Positions 1 through 8,658 of a stretch of 28,451 nucleotides of DNA are shown piece after piece; position 1 is the stretch's first letter; the number at the start of each line of letters is the position of its first letter. The translations under genes were made by a program, and so were the position numbers. The DNA is from Candidatus Woesearchaeota archaeon (GTDB lineage Archaea; Nanobdellota; Nanobdellia; Pacearchaeales; GW2011-AR1): NCBI GenBank assembly GCA_964397665.1, contig CAYNJW010000004.1, positions 6,660 to 35,110 on the forward strand, given 5' to 3'. The notes under the pieces were generated by a model. It searched no databases, was not told where the DNA came from, and saw only the letters and a program-made list of their open reading frames with translations.

Positions 1-40
1 TAGAAAGAATAAACTACTCTAAAATGACACTGAACATAAC

Positions 41-48
41 TTTTTAAA
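41..48 (+). promoter_or_regulatory. TATA-like box (TTTTTAAA) for the 70..1185 gene
   Basis: The box ends 22 nt before the ATG at 70. The same spacing recurs at at least 11 other genes in this window. Confidence 0.5.
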
Positions 49-69
49 GAAAAGATTATTAAAAAACTA

Positions 70-1185
70 ATGAATGAAAAACAATATATTGCCATAGAAA
101 ATGAACTAACAAGTTTTAGAAAAAATGAACAAAAAAGAATTAAAGGAAAAGAATTAAAAATTTATTTTTCCAAATTAAAAAACCAAACACATTATACTTC
201 AAAAAAAGAAATAACAACCACCCAATTAAGTCAAATAGAAAAAAAAGTTTTAAGAACTGAAACTGGGAACGCATATTATATTGATGGAGATGTTATAGAA
301 GTAGTGACTCCACCAATAGAAATAAACTATGGTTTTGCAACAAGATTAACGAATTCTTTAATGATTGCAAGAGAAAATATTCTAAAAACAATTCCTTTAG
401 AACATACTGGATATAGTATTCACTGGAATTTAACAACTCCTTATTCTTCAAAAGAAAAAAACTCTGAAAATAGAAAAAAATTTATGAGACCATTAATAGT
501 TCCATTTCAAATGTTTGGTTTAACACCTGTTTCTATTGGATGTGCAATAAGAGAAAGATATCCTAGGTGGGAACTAATGAGTGATGACATACCTACAGAA
601 AAACAATTATCTGCAACTGCACTACTACTTGGTGCATATTTAAAAAATCAAAAAAACAAAAGTTTAATGAATTATCCAACTGAAATTGAAATCAGAAAAT
701 CTAAAAAAGATAATCGGCTTGTATATTCAAACAATTATACAAACAGGGTAAAAGTTATCTCAACAATTGAAGGTAAACAAACAACTCAAGAATTCCTTTT
801 ATCATTTTATGAGAGAATTCACAAAGAGATAGAAAAACTTGGAGATAAAAAAGAGATAGAAAATTTAGAAAATTTTATTTTAGGAAAGGAAAATTTAGAA
901 ATAGACCACAATGATTTTTGGATAAAAACAAGAAATAACCAACCAAATAACCTTGGAATCAATTTACCACTAAAAATAAAAAATAAAACAAATATCTTCA
1001 GAAAAAATAAAATAAAAAAACAAACACCATTAGAAGGAAAATGTTATGGTGTAATAATCTCTAAAAAAAATATCCAAAAATTTAGTTGGAATAAATTAAT
1101 TATTAAAAATGAAGATGGAACTTTAAGCAAAATAGAAGGTGTGGAAAATATTATTAACTATGGATCAAGATTATTAAACAATTAA
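70..1185 (+). CDS. hypothetical protein (orphan; weak glutamine-synthetase/GCL-fold amidoligase-like motifs)
   Basis: 371-aa ATG ORF with a correctly spaced TATA box. No family is recognised with certainty. The ordered motifs IAIENEL, DGDVIEVVTPP and GYSIHWNL resemble GS-like amidoligase motifs, but this rests on memory only. Confidence 0.6.
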   Translation: MNEKQYIAIENELTSFRKNEQKRIKGKELKIYFSKLKNQTHYTSKKEITTTQLSQIEKKVLRTETGNAYYIDGDVIEVVTPPIEINYGFATRLTNSLMIARENILKTIPLEHTGYSIHWNLTTPYSSKEKNSENRKKFMRPLIVPFQMFGLTPVSIGCAIRERYPRWELMSDDIPTEKQLSATALLLGAYLKNQKNKSLMNYPTEIEIRKSKKDNRLVYSNNYTNRVKVISTIEGKQTTQEFLLSFYERIHKEIEKLGDKKEIENLENFILGKENLEIDHNDFWIKTRNNQPNNLGINLPLKIKNKTNIFRKNKIKKQTPLEGKCYGVIISKKNIQKFSWNKLIIKNEDGTLSKIEGVENIINYGSRLLNN

Positions 1186-1244
1186 TTTTTCTCAAACAAA
1201 AAAGATACAAACAATTTATAAATACTGAAATTCTTAAAATATTA

Positions 1245-1249
1245 GGAGG
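1245..1249 (+). promoter_or_regulatory. Shine-Dalgarno-like GGAGG upstream of the oxidoreductase operon
   Basis: GGAGG lies 5 nt upstream of the ATG at 1255. A TTTATAAA box at 1215-1222 sits further upstream, so this is one of the few leadered genes in the window. Confidence 0.5.
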
Positions 1250-1254
1250 GATAA

Positions 1255-2781
1255 ATGAAATATACAATTTTAATAGGTGGTCGAGCAGGACAAGGAATAA
1301 ATAAAATTTCTGAGATAATAACTGAAATTGTAAATTCTTTTGGATATTACATCTTCAATTATCGCGATTATCCTTCATTAATTCGTGGAGGGCATAATTT
1401 TAATGTTTTAACAATTTCTGATAAACAAATAGGTTCGATAGAAAAAAAAATAGATGTATTAATTGCTATGGATGAAAAAACAATTAAATTACATAAAGAA
1501 AAACTAAAAACTAAATCTTGGTTAATTACTCCAAAAGGTTTTGAAAAATTGGGAAGAGATTTGAATATTGCTCAAGCAACTGCTTTTCTTAAAATTCTTG
1601 GAATTCCAAAAAAATTAATCTTAAAAGAGGTTACAAAAAACTTTCAACATCAGGGAGCAAAAAACGCCGTTGAAGATGGTTATAATTCTCAAAAGGAGAA
1701 TATTAAACTAAAAAAACTAAATAATAAAATTTCAATTTTAACAGGTTCACAAGCAATAGCAAAAGGTGCAATAAACTCAAAAGTAGATAGGTATATTGCA
1801 TATCCAATGACTCCATCTACAGGAGTATTACATGAAATGGCAAACAAACAGTTTAACAATAACTTTGTAGTATTTCAACCAGAAAATGAAATCGCAGTTG
1901 TAAACATGGCACTAGGATCGAGTTTTGCAGGTGCAAGAACCATGATTGGAACTGCAGGCGGAGGATTTGACCTAATGACTGAAGGATTAAGTTTTCAGGG
2001 AATGTCTGAAGTCCCTTTAGTAGTTTATCTAGCCTCAAGACCTGGACCTGGTTCTGGAGTCCCAACATATTCTACACAATCTGATGTAGATATTGCGTTA
2101 AGAGCTGGACATGGTGAATTTCCAAGAGTTGTAATCGCACCAGGAGACCCAATTGAAGCTATTGAAAAAACAAATGAGTCCTTTTATCTTACTGAAAAAT
2201 TTAATACTCTTTCAATAATTTTAGCGGATAAACATCTTGCAGAAAGCCAATATTCCTCTCACAAAAAAGAAAATAAAAATATAAAAATTTCTCAAAATAG
2301 AAACATTCCAGGAAAAACTATTGTAAAATCTTCATCTTATGAACATAAAATAGATGGAAATACAACAGAAGATGCAAAAATAACAAAAATAAATGCAGAT
2401 AATAGAATTAAAAAATATAAAGAAATAAAGAAAGAATGTGCAAAATTTGAGATGGTAAAAATTCATGGTAAAAAAAATTCAAAAAATTTAATTATAGGAT
2501 TTGGTTCAACAAAAAACCAAATTTTAGATGCAATTGAAAATCTTGACTGCAAATTTCTTCAAGTAATCTATCTAAAACCAATGTCTAATAAAATAAAAAC
2601 AGAAATGAAAAAAGCAAAAAAGATTATTTTAATAGAACAGAATAGCACTGGACAACTTGGAAGACTCTTAAGAGAAAAAACTGGAATTTCAATACTTGAA
2701 AAAAATAGAATTTTAAAATATGATGGGAGACCATTTTATTTAGAAGAATTAAAATCAGAAATTAAAAAAAGATTAAAATGA
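1255..2781 (+). CDS. 2-oxoacid:ferredoxin oxidoreductase, fused gamma-alpha subunit
   Basis: A gamma-type N-terminal domain (GGRAGQGINK...YPSLIRGGHNFN) is followed by an alpha/POR_N-type domain (GSQAIAKGAI...YIAYPMTPSTG) and a domain-II-like C-terminus. The stop overlaps the next start (ATGA at 2778-2781). Confidence 0.85.
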   Translation: MKYTILIGGRAGQGINKISEIITEIVNSFGYYIFNYRDYPSLIRGGHNFNVLTISDKQIGSIEKKIDVLIAMDEKTIKLHKEKLKTKSWLITPKGFEKLGRDLNIAQATAFLKILGIPKKLILKEVTKNFQHQGAKNAVEDGYNSQKENIKLKKLNNKISILTGSQAIAKGAINSKVDRYIAYPMTPSTGVLHEMANKQFNNNFVVFQPENEIAVVNMALGSSFAGARTMIGTAGGGFDLMTEGLSFQGMSEVPLVVYLASRPGPGSGVPTYSTQSDVDIALRAGHGEFPRVVIAPGDPIEAIEKTNESFYLTEKFNTLSIILADKHLAESQYSSHKKENKNIKISQNRNIPGKTIVKSSSYEHKIDGNTTEDAKITKINADNRIKKYKEIKKECAKFEMVKIHGKKNSKNLIIGFGSTKNQILDAIENLDCKFLQVIYLKPMSNKIKTEMKKAKKIILIEQNSTGQLGRLLREKTGISILEKNRILKYDGRPFYLEELKSEIKKRLK

Positions 2782-3602
2782 AAAAAACAACAAAAGAAAA
2801 ATTAAGAACAAATGAAGAAATGACTTGGTGTCCTGGATGCCCAAATTATATGATTTTAGAAAGTGTAAAAACTGCACTATCCAAACTTATTAATTCTAAG
2901 AAATATAAACAAACAGATTTTGCAATGGCTTCAGATATTGGATGTAATTCAAAAATATTTGATTATCTGAATATTTCAGGTATTTATGGACTTCATGGAA
3001 GGTCACTTCCAACAGCAATAGGAATAAAACTTGGAAATCCAAAACTAAAAGTTTTATCTTTTACCGGAGATGGTGCAATTTATTCTGAAGGAATTTCCCA
3101 TTTAATTCCTGCATTCAGATACAATGTTGATATGACACTATTAGTACATGATAATCAAGCCTTCTCACTAACTACTGGACAACCAACAGCAACTTCCCAA
3201 CAAGGATACAGTTCAAAAGCAGACCCACGAGGAGTAATGGATCAACCATTAAATCCGATAAAGTTAGCTTTAGCATGTAATGCTACATTTATAGCAAGAA
3301 CAAATGCTAAAGATATTAAACATACTGCTGAAATTATTGAAAAAGCAATTAAACATCGAGGTTTCTCATATATTGAAATTATGCAAGATTGCTTAATATT
3401 TAATAAAAAAATAAACAACAAAGACTCAATAATGTATAAAATAAAAGATAACAAAAATTTAAAAATTGCAGAAAAACTTGCAAATGAATATGACTATAAC
3501 TCTAAAAAAGGAAAAATACCTTTGGGAGTAATTTACCAAACTAATAAACCAACACTAACTGAAAAAAGACCACTCCTAAAAAGGAAACTAAATAATAAAT
3601 GA
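2778..3602 (+). CDS. 2-oxoacid:ferredoxin oxidoreductase, beta (TPP-binding) subunit
   Basis: Contains the WCPGCPNY Cys motif, DIGCNS, and the TPP-binding GDGAIYSEG motif. It overlaps both neighbouring genes by ATGA. Confidence 0.85.
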   Translation: MKKTTKEKLRTNEEMTWCPGCPNYMILESVKTALSKLINSKKYKQTDFAMASDIGCNSKIFDYLNISGIYGLHGRSLPTAIGIKLGNPKLKVLSFTGDGAIYSEGISHLIPAFRYNVDMTLLVHDNQAFSLTTGQPTATSQQGYSSKADPRGVMDQPLNPIKLALACNATFIARTNAKDIKHTAEIIEKAIKHRGFSYIEIMQDCLIFNKKINNKDSIMYKIKDNKNLKIAEKLANEYDYNSKKGKIPLGVIYQTNKPTLTEKRPLLKRKLNNK

Positions 3603-4447
3603 ATAAAAATAATTTAACATTAATTGGGGAAAAATTAAATTCTAAAACCCCAATGTTAATAATGCTTGCTCCAGCATTTCTAACAGATTTTAAATTTCCA
3701 GACATAATTCATCAATTAAAAAAATTAGGATTTGATAAAGTTACTGAAATAACCTTTGGAGCAAAAATAGTAAATAAAGAATACCATAAACTATTAAAAA
3801 AAACAAATAGATTAGTAATCTCTTCTCCATGTCCTGGAATAGTCCATACAATCTCTCACAACTTCCCCAAACTTAAAAAAAATTTAGCAAAAATTGACAG
3901 CCCTGTTGTTGCTATGTCAAAAATCTGTAAAAAAGAATATCCTAATCATGAAATAACTTTCCTATCTCCTTGTGAATTTAAAAAAATAGAAGCATCAAAA
4001 ACAAAAACAATTGACTGGGTAATCGATTTTGAACAACTTAAAAAACTTATCAAAGAAAAGAATATAAAAAAACCGAAATTTAAAAAGAAAAACCTAACAT
4101 TTGATAAATTCTACAATGATTATACAAAAATCTATCCACTTTCTGGAGGACTTTCTCAGACTGCACAAATCAACAGAATACTAAAAAAGAAGGAAATTAA
4201 AGTTATAGATGGCATTCTTAATGTAATGGAATTTATGAAAAATCCTGACCCAAAAATCAAATTTGTAGATTGTTTATTCTGTGATGGTGGTTGTATTGGT
4301 GGACCTCATACAACAAAAAAAATTTCAATTGATAAAAAAAGTAAAATTCTTAAACAATATCTTAAACAATCTAAAAGAAAAAGTATTCCAGAAAATAGAA
4401 AAGGATTACTAAAAAGAGCAAAAAATTTAAAATTTACAAAACAATAA
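3599..4447 (+). CDS. [FeFe]-hydrogenase H-domain-like protein (minimal, 282 aa, no accessory cluster domains)
   Basis: Aligns by eye to the clostridial HydA H-domain. MLAPAF...LGFDKVTEITFGA matches QMAPAV...LGFDKIFDINFGA. L1-like SSPCPG has Cys78 at 3830-3832, L2-like SPCEFKKIE has Cys125 at 3971-3973, and L3-like FCDGGCIGGPH has Cys228/Cys232 at 4280-4294. Confidence 0.75.
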   Translation: MNKNNLTLIGEKLNSKTPMLIMLAPAFLTDFKFPDIIHQLKKLGFDKVTEITFGAKIVNKEYHKLLKKTNRLVISSPCPGIVHTISHNFPKLKKNLAKIDSPVVAMSKICKKEYPNHEITFLSPCEFKKIEASKTKTIDWVIDFEQLKKLIKEKNIKKPKFKKKNLTFDKFYNDYTKIYPLSGGLSQTAQINRILKKKEIKVIDGILNVMEFMKNPDPKIKFVDCLFCDGGCIGGPHTTKKISIDKKSKILKQYLKQSKRKSIPENRKGLLKRAKNLKFTKQ

Positions 4448-5309
4448 TTAAAATTGCCCCAATTAACATAACTATTGTTGCTAAAATTCTAATAAATAAA
4501 TTCTTATCTTTGAAAATTCTCCCACCAATTATTATTGCGAAAAAAACAGACAGCCTCTTTATAGACAACACCAAAGCTACTGGAATTAATTTAACTGCTA
4601 AAATTTGTAAATAACGATAAGATAATGTAATAAAAGATAGAATGAATATGGCTCTCCAAGAATATTTAATAGTTTTTTTTATTTCAGAGTAATCTTTAGA
4701 AACTAAAACTATTACTAAAAAGATAATTGCTAAAAAAAGATGTTGAAATGCAAAAAAAGCATTTACTTGAATTTTAAATTTACTTAATAATGCTTTATCA
4801 AGAATTGAAGTAGTAGTAAATAAAAAAAGTGCGATAAAAATGTACTTATTTCCTTTTGAACTAAATAGTTTTTTTACGGGAGTTAAAAAATCCAGTTTTC
4901 CACCTAATTGCAAAACATACGTCCCTATTAGTAAAAATAAAATTCCAATAATTTCAAAAAAAGATAAAACATCTCCAAGAATAAGAAATGCAAAAACTGC
5001 AACTAATCCAGGAGTAAGAATCAACATTGGTAAAGCTTTGCTAATCTCTAAATCTTTAATTGCGAGCATAACACACACAAAAGAAATTGCACCTAAAAAA
5101 CTTTTAAAGAACAACACAAAAAGACTAATTAATGTTAATGAATGATAATCTATAAAAAAGAAAAAAGGGATTGAGATAATAAAATTAAAAAAACCTAAAA
5201 GAAAAGAAAAAGATAAAGCTTTATCCTTAAATAAAATCTTCTTCTCGAGAATTGCAGCAAAAGCAGAAAAAATTGCAGAACCAAAAGCAAATAAATATCC
5301 TTCTAACAT
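4434..5309 (-). CDS. EamA/DMT-family membrane transporter
   Basis: 291 aa with about 10 hydrophobic segments arranged as two EamA-like halves. Its start overlaps the tatD stop by 7 nt. Confidence 0.7.
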   Translation of the reverse strand: MLEGYLFAFGSAIFSAFAAILEKKILFKDKALSFSFLLGFFNFIISIPFFFFIDYHSLTLISLFVLFFKSFLGAISFVCVMLAIKDLEISKALPMLILTPGLVAVFAFLILGDVLSFFEIIGILFLLIGTYVLQLGGKLDFLTPVKKLFSSKGNKYIFIALFLFTTTSILDKALLSKFKIQVNAFFAFQHLFLAIIFLVIVLVSKDYSEIKKTIKYSWRAIFILSFITLSYRYLQILAVKLIPVALVLSIKRLSVFFAIIIGGRIFKDKNLFIRILATIVMLIGAILIIVL

Positions 5310-6100
5310 AAATCGAATAACTCCACAGAATTCTTATAAATTTGTTTAGCAACTTCTTTTTCAGTTAAATTCTTAATTTCTGCAATCCTCTTGACTGTAA
5401 TTGTAACATTTGCAGGTTCATTTCTAACTCCTGCTATTGGTGATAAATAAGGCGAATCTGTTTCTGTCAATAATTGTTCAAGAGGAACTAAATCTACCAA
5501 CATTTCAAAATGTTGTAATCGAGTAATCACTGGAGGAACAGAAAAATAAAAACCAGCTTCAACACCTTCTCTAATTAAAGATTTTTTCCCATTAAAACAA
5601 TGCATTATAACTTTCCTTAAATTATTTTCTTTTAAAATTTTAATAGCATCAGCCTCTGCTTTTCTAGAATGAATCACTATTGGTTTATTTATCTTTTTAG
5701 CAAGTTCTATACTTTTTAAAAAAACTGCTTTTTGTTCTTCTTTAAAATCTGGAGCAATCTGATAATCTAAACCAACTTCTCCAATTGCAACACAGTCTTT
5801 TGAATGTTCTTCTATCCATTTAATCTCTTTATCTACTGAAAAAGGTTTAATAACTCTTGAAACATCATCATCTAACTGTCCAACAAGTTCTATAATTGAA
5901 TCTATTGGGTACAACCCAAAACTAGCTTTTATTAAAGAATACTTCTTACTAAGTTCTAAAGTTTTTCTATTTGTTTCAGGATTGACCCCTGAATTGATTA
6001 TAAAACTTACACCTTTCTCTTTTGCCCTAGTTAAAACATCTTTCAAATCACCCTCAAAACGCGAACTTTCAACATGTGCATGAACATCTACAAACTCCAT
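5303..6100 (-). CDS. tatD: TatD-family metal-dependent hydrolase/DNase
   Basis: N-terminal DVHAHV motif, plus GEVGLDY, VIHSR and TDSPYL motifs typical of TatD. Confidence 0.85.
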   Translation of the reverse strand: MEFVDVHAHVESSRFEGDLKDVLTRAKEKGVSFIINSGVNPETNRKTLELSKKYSLIKASFGLYPIDSIIELVGQLDDDVSRVIKPFSVDKEIKWIEEHSKDCVAIGEVGLDYQIAPDFKEEQKAVFLKSIELAKKINKPIVIHSRKAEADAIKILKENNLRKVIMHCFNGKKSLIREGVEAGFYFSVPPVITRLQHFEMLVDLVPLEQLLTETDSPYLSPIAGVRNEPANVTITVKRIAEIKNLTEKEVAKQIYKNSVELFDLC

Positions 6101-6111
6101 ATATAAAAAAG

Positions 6112-6179
6112 AAAAGCATAGTTTTTATTATTTTGCTAATCACCTTTTAATCTCTTTTCCATTGAAAATCAAAGTTGAA
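6112..6179. repeat. Direct repeat copy 1 (68 bp, identical to 7108-7175); an orphan copy of the tsaC 3' end plus the functional tatD promoter
   Basis: Base-by-base comparison at an offset of 996 nt gives 68/68 identity. Identity is lost at 6111/7107 and at 6180/7176. Confidence 0.95.
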
Positions 6180-6362
6180 AAACACAAGCGGAATGTAATG
6201 ACTTCCAGAGTTTTTTGTAAAAAAAATTTGGGAAAATTCTGTAAGGATTTTCTGTTAACTATTGTTGCTTTACCCTAACGAAGTGAGAGTCTCCAATGCA
6301 TTGCAAAAAAATGAGGAGTTTGAATACTCTTTACCACTATTAAATGACTAAAAATAGAAAGA

Positions 6363-6370
6363 TTTATAAA
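6363..6370 (+). promoter_or_regulatory. TATA box (TTTATAAA) of the insert ORF, with GGAGG at 6396-6400
   Basis: The box lies 40 nt upstream of the ATG at 6410. GGAGG is 9 nt upstream of that ATG, implying a leadered mRNA, unlike most host genes. Confidence 0.45.
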
Positions 6371-6409
6371 TGGAATTTCTTTTCTACTTTTGCAAGGAGG
6401 ACAAATAGA

Positions 6410-6838
6410 ATGAACAAAACACAAATAACAAATGCAGATCTTGTAGAGAGATTTCCACAAATAAGGAATAAAACTACTGCTATGAAAGCTGTAATGGATG
6501 TTCTGAAAGAAAGTCTAGAACCTGCATATCAGGGATTAGAAGTAAGACCCTATTTTGAAAATAGGGATATTGGCATATTAATGCCTTTATATGCTCCTGA
6601 ATTGAAAGGTTACCATTTAATTCAGAAAACAAAACTAGACCAACCAGAAAGAACTATCAAAAAAAGTCTTTTCGGACTTATAAAAACACAAGTAACTAAA
6701 ACACATGACAAGAGAAATATCGCCTATGGAGGTATAGAATCTTCTGCTCTTGACGTTCTTGTATATGAAAGCGAAGTTTTACAAGCATGTGAAGAAATTG
6801 CTAGAAAAACACAAGGTGGTCTTAGGGTTAGATTATAA
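6410..6838 (+). CDS. hypothetical protein (142 aa), sole cargo ORF of the insert
   Basis: The ORF track begins at the ATG at 6344, but only the ATG at 6410 has GGAGG at proper spacing, and no TATA box sits 22 nt upstream of 6344. I recognise no motif in it. Confidence 0.6.
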   Translation: MNKTQITNADLVERFPQIRNKTTAMKAVMDVLKESLEPAYQGLEVRPYFENRDIGILMPLYAPELKGYHLIQKTKLDQPERTIKKSLFGLIKTQVTKTHDKRNIAYGGIESSALDVLVYESEVLQACEEIARKTQGGLRVRL

Positions 6839-6844
6839 ATCTAA

Positions 6845-6860
6845 TTTCTTTTTTATTTTT
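6845..6860 (+). terminator. oligo-T tract downstream of the insert ORF
   Basis: T6 at 6849-6854 and T5 at 6856-6860 lie right after the stop at 6836-6838. Archaeal termination typically uses oligo-T. Confidence 0.35.
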
Positions 6861-7107
6861 ATTATCTTTATTTAAAACTCACTAATCAATGAAAAATTTT
6901 GGTGAGCTTTGTGAACATTTTATCCTTCGTTAGACAAAGTGCAAAGCATTTTGTAAGTTTTCATTGATCTGATAAGTTGTAGATTAAAAGTCTTTACATT
7001 TTTCTTGACATTCGAAAATAAGTAGTTTTTCTATTTTTGTCTAAAACAAAAAGCTATTTGTCCGAAGGACGTATGCTTATCTCTCCTATCATTCGGGTTG
7101 GAAGAAA

Positions 7108-7175
7108 AAAAGCATAGTTTTTATTATTTTGCTAATCACCTTTTAATCTCTTTTCCATTGAAAATCAAAGTTGAA
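7108..7175. repeat. Direct repeat copy 2 (68 bp); contains the last 12 codons and stop of tsaC plus 28 bp downstream
   Basis: Identical to 6112-6179. On the minus strand it encodes ...STLIFNGKEIKR*, continuous with the tsaC ORF. Confidence 0.95.
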
Positions 7176-7645
7176 GGTCTTCCATTCAAAACACCACCAT
7201 CAATAATCTCATCTACCTGGCTTTTAATAAACTCATCAATTAAACTTGTTGAAACTGCAAATGATTCTCCAGAAAGATTAACTGATGTAGTAATAAATGG
7301 AACTTTAGCTAATTGAATACTCTTAAAAAAATCACAATTGGGAATTCTTACCCCCAAAGTATCACCCTTAGCAACATGATTTAAAAAATTTCTTTTCTTT
7401 TTCCTAAGAATTAAGGTATATTGTCCTGGAAGATACTTTGATAAATCAACATCGACAATAAGATTTTCTTCTATCCATTTTATCGAAGGTGCTATAACAC
7501 TTAATGGCTTATTTTTGTCTCTTCTTTTCAAATCTTTTAATTTTTGAACCGCTGGAACATCTAAAGCGTTACAACCAAGACCATAAATTGTATCTGTAGG
7601 GTAAATAAATAATTTTCCACTTAATATTTTTTTCACAACATCCAT
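7136..7645 (-). CDS. tsaC: L-threonylcarbamoyladenylate synthase (YrdC/TsaC/Sua5 domain)
   Basis: Contains YPTDTIYGLGCNA, KRRDKNKPLSVI, LGVRIP and TTSVNLSGE motifs. The track start at 7666 is GTG. The ATG at 7645 has a TATA-like box (7668-7674, minus strand) 23 nt upstream and does not overlap the divergent promoter. Confidence 0.85.
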   Translation of the reverse strand: MDVVKKILSGKLFIYPTDTIYGLGCNALDVPAVQKLKDLKRRDKNKPLSVIAPSIKWIEENLIVDVDLSKYLPGQYTLILRKKKRNFLNHVAKGDTLGVRIPNCDFFKSIQLAKVPFITTSVNLSGESFAVSTSLIDEFIKSQVDEIIDGGVLNGRPSTLIFNGKEIKR

Positions 7646-7678
7646 AAGACTTATAATCTTAAACACCTAATAAACTTT

Positions 7679-7900
7679 ATGCAAATTATATCTCTAATCT
7701 TGATTCTCTGTGCAATTCCTTTAGGAATTTTTGCAAAAAGTCTGACAAAAGATGAAAAAAAAATTTACTGTAAAAAACAATACTTTCCGACAATTATTTT
7801 AATAACTTCAATAAGCATTTTAATCTTCTATTTTATAAATATTATAATTGCTAAAACATTACTTTTTATTACACTTCTAATTTTATTTTGGAAAAAATAA
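7679..7900 (+). CDS. small membrane protein (73 aa, 2-3 TM segments)
   Basis: ATG ORF. TTATAAT at 7651-7657 ends 22 nt upstream. The protein is strongly hydrophobic. Confidence 0.5.
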   Translation: MQIISLILILCAIPLGIFAKSLTKDEKKIYCKKQYFPTIILITSISILIFYFINIIIAKTLLFITLLILFWKK

Positions 7901-7950
7901 TTAAAAGTTATAACCAAAACTACTAAAAACCCTCAAAAACTATTCTAAGA

Positions 7951-8658
7951 ATGGTATTTAATTTAATAGGTCTTGGGTTAAATGAAAAATCAATAACTCT
8001 TGAAGCATTGGAAGCTATAAAAAACTCTGAAGAAGTCTATATCGAAAATTATACTGTTGATTTTCCTTACTCTTTTAGCGAATTAGAAAAAAATCTCAAA
8101 ATTAAGATTCAACCACTAAACAGGGAAGAAGTAGAAAATGAATCTGTAATAATAAAAGCAAAAAATAAAAATATCTCCTTACTAGTTTACGGAGATTCAT
8201 TATCTGCAACAACACATACACAATTATTACTTGCTTGTAAAAAAGAAAATTTAAAATTTAAAATTTACCATAATGCTTCAATTCTAACAGCAATTGCTGA
8301 AACTGGACTACAACCTTATAAGTTTGGAAAAATATCTTCAATGCCAACTTGGACAGATACTTGGAAACCTCATTCTTTTATGGAATACATCATTCAAAAT
8401 CAATCAATCAATGCTCATTCACTCTTGCTAATTGATATCTCACTACCCATTAAAAAAGCAATTGAACAATTAAAAATTGCTTCAAAAGAATTTAATCTAA
8501 ATCTAAATAAAATCATTATTTGTAAAAATCTTGGAACTAAAAATTCTCAAATAATCTATGAATCAATTGATAAAATAAAAGAAATAAAATCTCCATTTTG
8601 TTTTATAATCCCCTCTAAACTTCAAGAGATAGAAAAAGAATATTTAGAGAAATTATAA
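7951..8658 (+). CDS. dphB: diphthine synthase (EF-2 diphthamide biosynthesis methyltransferase)
   Basis: The N-terminus LIGLGLNEKSITLEALEAIK, GDSLSATTH and YKFGK match archaeal Dph5/DphB. Confidence 0.8.
   Translation: MVFNLIGLGLNEKSITLEALEAIKNSEEVYIENYTVDFPYSFSELEKNLKIKIQPLNREEVENESVIIKAKNKNISLLVYGDSLSATTHTQLLLACKKENLKFKIYHNASILTAIAETGLQPYKFGKISSMPTWTDTWKPHSFMEYIIQNQSINAHSLLLIDISLPIKKAIEQLKIASKEFNLNLNKIIICKNLGTKNSQIIYESIDKIKEIKSPFCFIIPSKLQEIEKEYLEKL

Follow-up and report, generated by a model that had tools for sequence, protein, structure and literature searches.

We analysed a stretch of 28,451 nucleotides from Candidatus Woesearchaeota archaeon (GenBank assembly GCA_964397665.1, contig CAYNJW010000004.1, positions 6,660 to 35,110 of the forward strand), called the window below, in which three adjacent genes encode a 2-oxoacid:ferredoxin oxidoreductase (OFOR) and a predicted small [FeFe] hydrogenase (HydA). 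The window has a GC content of about 27% and is part of contig C4 of the source genome (G000), which consists of 617 kb in 36 contigs and is 84% complete. Through ORF calling, three open reading frames (ORFs) were found on the forward strand (Table 1). Direct reading of the sequence confirmed both ATGA stop/start overlaps by which the original prediction had joined them, at 2778-2781 between ORF1 and ORF2 and at 3599-3602 between ORF2 and ORF3. The only promoter-like element seen upstream of the three-gene set by sequence reading was the box TTTATAAA. The Pfam content also agreed with the predicted products, a gamma-alpha fusion subunit, a beta subunit with thiamine pyrophosphate (TPP) and Fe-S sites, and an H-domain-like protein of 282 aa. 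The three genes are a translationally coupled operon of OFOR and an H-domain-only [FeFe] hydrogenase.

Table 1. Features of the operon and its immediate surroundings, in window positions.
Feature	Position	Strand	Basis or remark
Archaeal TATA-like box TTTATAAA	1215..1222	+	33 nt ahead of the first ATG; sequence reading
GGAGG ribosome-binding site	1245..1249	+	5 nt 5' of the OFOR alpha ATG; sequence reading
ORF1, OFOR alpha subunit, 508 aa	1255..2781	+	PF01558, PF01855, TIGR03710 and 5B48_A matches
ORF2, OFOR beta subunit, 274 aa	2778..3602	+	PF02775, PRK11866 and 5B48_B matches; start overlaps alpha stop
ORF3, HydA, predicted group E 'ultraminimal' [FeFe] hydrogenase, 282 aa	3599..4447	+	PF02906; start overlaps beta stop
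ORF of 371 aa	70..1185	+	Directly 5' of the operon; no Pfam match
EamA-family transporter gene	4434..5309	-	Convergent; overlaps the hydrogenase 3' end by 14 nt
ORF beyond the EamA transporter gene	5303..6100	-

In ORF1 a POR gamma-like domain (PF01558, aa 11-143) is fused to a POR_N alpha domain (PF01855, aa 171-388), and ORF2 contains TPP_enzyme_C (PF02775, 104.7 bits) with a weak PFO_beta_C match. The nearest NCBIfam models were OAFO_sf alpha TIGR03710 for ORF1 (433.1 bits, under the cut-off of 482.75) and OFOR beta PRK11866 for ORF2 (262.9 bits, under the cut-off of 402). Both proteins are condensed and divergent and score below the cut-offs, so they are placed by their architecture and by their homology to solved structures. 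Among these, the best matches came from the OFOR of Sulfolobus tokodaii, 5B48_A for alpha (E 5.7e-67, spanning both parts) and 5B48_B for beta (E 1.9e-45, with the Cys residues aligned). In the alignment with this enzyme, the YPITP motif appears as YPMTP in the alpha subunit, and the beta subunit shows the TPP-binding GDG...DN motif, while beta residues C18, C21, C56 and C205 (CxxC...C...C) would be the ligands for a single [4Fe-4S] cluster. From its sequence, the OFOR is predicted to be an ordinary two-subunit archaeal (Sulfolobus-type) enzyme. To our knowledge, this type has gamma and alpha fused and never a delta subunit. The lack of delta is thus what this known type normally shows, and we rejected it as a novelty; the original prediction, comparing the locus with classical four-subunit PORs, had taken the missing subunit for a peculiarity.

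The S. tokodaii enzyme (StOFOR, PDB 5B46-5B48) resembles the window OFOR in its gamma-alpha fusion, its YPITP-type motif, its beta subunit with TPP and one [4Fe-4S] cluster on four Cys, its lack of a delta subunit and, as would apply here too, its external ferredoxin as acceptor. The window alpha subunit differs in being about 120 aa shorter (508 vs 627 aa) and in falling below the curated NCBIfam cut-off (433 vs 482.75 bits), and in the window the OFOR genes are followed by a hydrogenase gene in the same operon.

The sole domain found in HydA was PF02906 (Fe_hyd_lg_C, 129 bits, aa 21-236), and the N-terminal F-cluster domains are missing, as had been read from the sequence at first. More than 1000 metagenome homologues of about 280 aa each were found. 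The AlphaFold2 model of HydA is a single compact domain (predicted local distance difference test score 85, predicted template-modelling (TM) score 0.85), and its top fold matches were the H-domains of CpI, T. kivui HydA and T. maritima HydA (TM 0.72-0.78, E about 1e-16), with CpI as the best (TM 0.74-0.78). Membership in group A or group B was rejected, since the scores were far under the curated cut-offs (63.3 bits vs 406 for the group A model TIGR02512; 136.4 vs 450 for the group B1 model TIGR04105).

The group E 'ultraminimal' [FeFe] hydrogenases were established as a class by Greening et al. (Cell 2024, PMC11216029); they are made up of the H-domain alone, average 286 aa in length and occur in Nanoarchaeota, Micrarchaeota and Iainarchaeota. 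Their exemplars are Fm from Ca. Forterrea multitransposorum and Na from CABMGN01 sp902385635; one hydrogenase was found per genome, and the CABMGN01 enzyme was modelled as group E (PMC11216029). The window HydA is 49% identical to the CABMGN010000008 enzyme over residues 13-281 (E 4e-87), and both fall in one tree of 80 sequences. Because of this identity we assign the window HydA, on sequence grounds, to group E. The unusually small DPANN [FeFe] hydrogenases that the first reading had mentioned are this group. The agreement extends to the length (282 aa vs the mean of 286), the H-domain as only domain, the four H-cluster Cys, the non-canonical proton-transfer residues, the DPANN host with one copy per genome, the lack of HydEFG and the frequent adjacency of oorAB/porAB, and the window copy is no different in kind from group E overall. 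It differs from the CABMGN01 enzyme at the position of CpI C299, where the latter has Val and the window copy Pro, and in its context, since the CABMGN01 gene lies beside LSm/RNase Z and the window copy belongs to an OFOR-linked clade.

The position of group E as sister of group C (PMC11216029), together with the lack of the proton-relay Cys, a feature shared with the sensory groups C and D, would fit a regulatory, group C/D-like enzyme that reports H2 partial pressure, and H2 sensing had been one of the options offered at first. However, the H-domain fills the 282 aa of HydA, and no PAS, kinase, phosphatase or other signalling domain was found by Pfam besides PF02906. HydA is also encoded at the end of a catabolic operon, and Fm, in contrast to the group C enzyme, is biased toward H+ reduction (PMC11216029). 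Because a signalling domain is missing and the operon is catabolic, we regard H2 sensing as highly improbable.

Residue conservation was tabulated over 200 aligned hydrogenase homologues, with numbering against CpI. The H-cluster ligands C78, C125, C228 and C232 of HydA, which correspond to CpI C300, C355, C499 and C503, were kept in 200/200 members. In the pocket of the 2Fe subcluster, the equivalents of CpI P231, K358 and E361 were likewise kept in all 200 and that of A230 in 199; the window HydA has A24-P25, K128 and E131 there. Nar1/NARF-like proteins have an N-terminal ferredoxin-like Cys cluster and have lost the residues lining the 2Fe pocket. This family description sets HydA apart from them, as it has no N-terminal Cys cluster domain, retains the pocket residues and lies near a group E exemplar; a Nar1/NARF-like identity, once raised as what might overturn the hydrogenase assignment, was not supported by this comparison with the family's features, in which no Nar1 sequence was aligned directly.

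The proton-transfer positions gave a different picture. At the position of the proton-relay residue CpI C299, Pro was found in 99 of the 200 homologues, Thr in 38, Val in 32, Ala in 31 and Cys in none, and the window copy has Pro77. The position of CpI E279 corresponds to residue 62 of HydA (window 3782-3784), which is Tyr in 200/200 and is followed by His in 182/200. Protons might instead travel by way of Tyr62 and the adjacent His, as candidate residues; when later literature was searched for studies of how protons are transferred in group E, nothing specific turned up.

The maturases HydE, HydF and HydG, for which a search had been proposed, were not found. In the source genome, 84% complete as said, the profile search gave no match for HydG or HydE and only generic GTPase matches for HydF (at most 50 bits vs a cut-off of 325), and all three were below the cut-offs also in five hydrogenase-positive relatives that are 91-100% complete. 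With none of them at its cut-off, the genome offers no account of how the [2Fe] subcluster would be put together in vivo. This shortage is a known puzzle of the whole archaeal family and not peculiar to the locus, the full HydEFG set having been found in only 5 of 130 archaeal genomes (PMC11216029).

HydA might accordingly be no hydrogenase in vivo; it could contain only the [4Fe-4S] part of the H-cluster and serve as an electron carrier or acceptor of the OFOR, or in an Fe-S handling role analogous to that of Nar1. The maturases missing from the source genome and from five near-complete relatives, and the proton-relay Cys absent in 200/200 members, would agree with such a role, as would the published activity of Fm, which was seen only once the protein had been matured artificially with synthetic [2Fe]adt (PMC11216029). 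However, the nearly or fully invariant residues of the [2Fe] pocket would be needless for a plain [4Fe-4S] protein, and for plain electron carriage a ferredoxin is already present. Fm binds the 2Fe cofactor as part of an H-cluster in a well-defined environment and is catalytic, and some eukaryotes without maturases still produce active enzyme (PMC11216029). We consider the non-hydrogenase role unlikely.

The conservation of the gene order was studied through a scan of named genomes, which gave 215 relatives, of which 80 loci were kept; ORFs were called and neighbour genes were clustered. Nearly all kept loci are labelled Pacearchaeota, Woesearchaeota, Nanoarchaeota or archaeon, with four bacterial labels and one Aenigmatarchaeota. 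Counting the window, 76 loci were assessable, and in 41 of them the hydrogenase has an OFOR at a distance of at most 6 kb: OFOR beta is directly upstream on the same strand in 20, and the other 21 have the OFOR elsewhere inside this distance. The directly adjacent junctions are tight, with an overlap of beta and hydrogenase in 15/21 and a gap of at most 9 nt in 3 more, and with the 4-nt overlap of alpha and beta in 13/13. In the maximum-likelihood tree of the 80 hydrogenases there were three supported clades, and OFOR linkage occurred in two of them: in 30 members of the clade of 38 that includes the window (support 98/94) and in 11 members of a clade of 12. The remaining clade of 30 (support 100/99) includes CABMGN01 and has the RNase Z context; here the OFOR was encoded elsewhere in 5/5 genomes tested. 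Thus the linkage seen in the window is kept in relatives, and the OFOR-hydrogenase arrangement is more than chance.

The order LSm - RNase Z - hydrogenase was found in 28 loci. We rejected this context (c4-c3-HYD) as a new partner system, because c4 is LSm-like and c3 RNase Z-like by eye, which makes it housekeeping synteny.

Small genes of 84-290 aa are present between OFOR alpha and beta in nine loci (L008, L009, L010, L013, L014, L018, L028, L044 and L065), where they break the otherwise universal 4-nt overlap; the recurring one is GNAT acetyltransferase-like by eye. They were rejected as a hidden delta subunit or ferredoxin, a Cys-motif scan having found none. Four hydrogenase contigs (L016, L048, L070 and L077) are labelled as bacterial metagenome-assembled genomes (Fusobacteriaceae, 'bacterium', Paceibacterota). 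L016 and L048 have the archaeal LSm/RNase Z context, L070 the usual EamA neighbour and L077 an OFOR; because all four fall inside the archaeal hydrogenase tree, they are probably mis-binned or mislabelled.

We also examined an order sample of 151 evenly drawn genomes, which are related to each other, so that the counts are descriptive only. Hydrogenase was found in 20 and OFOR in 63 of them, with OFOR in 19/20 hydrogenase-positive vs 44/131 hydrogenase-negative genomes. In one genus (g3), 6 of 11 genomes were hydrogenase-positive.

Pfam search found no Fer4 domain in any of the three operon proteins, and the window ORFs inspected for this (1-8000) included no ferredoxin gene. The original prediction had likewise seen none in the window, yet one is encoded elsewhere in the genome: a whole-genome motif scan revealed a 63-aa single-cluster ferredoxin (PF13370, 47.9 bits) on contig C12 at 1678-1839, and the idea of a ferredoxin-free genome was rejected. 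In the order sample, the PF13370 ferredoxin was found in 100/151 genomes, including 61/63 OFOR-positive and 19/20 hydrogenase-positive ones. Five loci (L012, L023, L025, L027 and L028) have it downstream of the hydrogenase, no more than about 5 kb away, and in one genome (G105) it is directly 5' of OFOR alpha. Since the ferredoxin tracks OFOR, and since OFOR is also present in 44 order-sample genomes without hydrogenase, the conventional route from OFOR through ferredoxin to HydA is the best supported one. The very short electron path proposed at first, a shortcut without ferredoxin, is unneeded.

Such a shortcut would mean that HydA docks on OFOR beta and that electrons pass straight from the beta [4Fe-4S] cluster to the bare H-cluster, in a physical OFOR(alpha-beta)-HydA complex that works as a ferredoxin-free pyruvate:H+ oxidoreductase, with the ferredoxin serving other reactions. 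The stop/start overlaps suggest stoichiometric co-synthesis, as with subunits of one complex, and the OFOR linkage is old, being present in two of three clades. Because HydA has no accessory clusters, its [4Fe-4S]H would also be exposed (PMC11216029). Against these points, the dedicated ferredoxin accompanies nearly all OFOR and hydrogenase genomes of the sample, the same OFOR is used without any hydrogenase in the 44 genomes mentioned, the clade of 30 hydrogenases with the published exemplar is OFOR-unlinked and beside LSm/RNase Z, and unrelated genes lie between beta and hydrogenase in several relatives. We therefore find direct transfer quite improbable; if true, the complex would be the smallest known pyruvate:proton oxidoreductase.

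Two other Fe-S proteins of the source genome were noted. At about position 14514 of contig C10 (forward strand), a frame of 135 aa (116 aa from the first Met) contains two CxxCxxCxxxCP motifs and matches Fer4_8/Fer4_17; this HdrC/GlpC-like dicluster protein is a possible second electron carrier. Contig C32 encodes an ABC-type ATPase (592 aa) whose N-terminus holds an Fe-S domain; by eye this protein was read as ABCE1/RLI.

An AMP-forming acetyl-CoA synthetase (ACS) of 643 aa is encoded on contig C4 at 3631-5562, a short way 5' of the window and about 2.3 kb upstream of OFOR alpha. In 16 relatives OFOR alpha has an ACS homologue at its side, a pattern suggesting an acetate/H2 cluster of ACS, OFOR and HydA. 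The genome also encodes pyruvate kinase, enolase and an enzyme of the PPDK/PEP-synthase type. The enolase match (contig C12, 17816-18622, reverse strand) contains an in-frame TAG, which may be a sequencing error, a sign of a pseudogene or something else.

Considering the operon, the ferredoxin and this setting, we read the locus as an operon by which a DPANN (Pacearchaeota/Nanoarchaeota-type) archaeon disposes of electrons in fermentation, in which electrons would flow from OFOR through ferredoxin and group E HydA to H2, and we give this a probability of roughly three in four. The OFOR alpha-beta enzyme would oxidatively decarboxylate pyruvate, possibly also other 2-oxoacids, to acyl-CoA and CO2. 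Electrons would leave through the [4Fe-4S] cluster of the beta subunit to the small soluble single-cluster ferredoxin encoded elsewhere, and the 282-aa HydA would reoxidise this ferredoxin at its solvent-exposed H-cluster, with production of H2. Acetyl-CoA would be converted to acetate by the AMP-forming ACS. The gene identities, their coupling, the kept linkage, the joint occurrence with ferredoxin and the kept H-cluster ligands are direct results of the analysis. From the sequence data we infer the substrate, the ferredoxin as go-between, the direction of H2 production and an H-cluster assembly in vivo that proceeds without HydEFG.

Some results weigh against this scheme. HydE, HydF and HydG stay under their cut-offs in the source genome and in the five relatives; the canonical proton path is gone, the C299 equivalent being never Cys (Pro in the window) and the E279 equivalent being Tyr; and the genomes behind the co-occurrence counts are related, so that these counts lack independence. 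The scheme resembles the clostridial and algal PFOR-ferredoxin-HydA systems (group A, CpI, CrHydA1) in leading from 2-oxoacid oxidation through ferredoxin to H2 and in the H-domain fold. Unlike in those systems, the window HydA has no F-clusters and no C299/E279 proton path, maturases were not found, and the group A models are not matched at their cut-offs. Looking back at the first reading of the window as a whole, the coupled OFOR/H-domain operon and the link to small DPANN hydrogenases have stood, while the delta subunit as an oddity, the short electron path and H2 sensing have not.

As for the neighbouring genes, the 371-aa ORF directly 5' of the operon is a singleton among the neighbour genes of the 80 related loci. 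It separates the ACS gene from the OFOR genes, which are near neighbours in the 16 relatives mentioned and touch in several. Downstream, an EamA gene borders the hydrogenase in about 20 related loci, with TatD next after it in many of them, in both OFOR-linked and RNase Z-linked contexts.

The pairing of OFOR with group E hydrogenases was already described in 2024, when OFOR genes were reported as 'frequently adjacent' to them (PMC11216029), and the locus is a sound, ordinary new example of it. The questions that it touches, how an H-cluster is made without HydEFG and how protons arrive without the relay Cys, were also posed in 2024, and the locus is no more testable than the published ones. 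Our results go slightly past the one sentence of the earlier paper, in showing that the family is divided between clades linked to OFOR and to LSm/RNase Z, and that the single-cluster ferredoxin closely tracks OFOR. The locus would thus add one more well-resolved minimal fermentative module, composed of ACS, OFOR, ferredoxin and an ultraminimal hydrogenase, through which genome-reduced DPANN archaea may dispose of electrons as H2.

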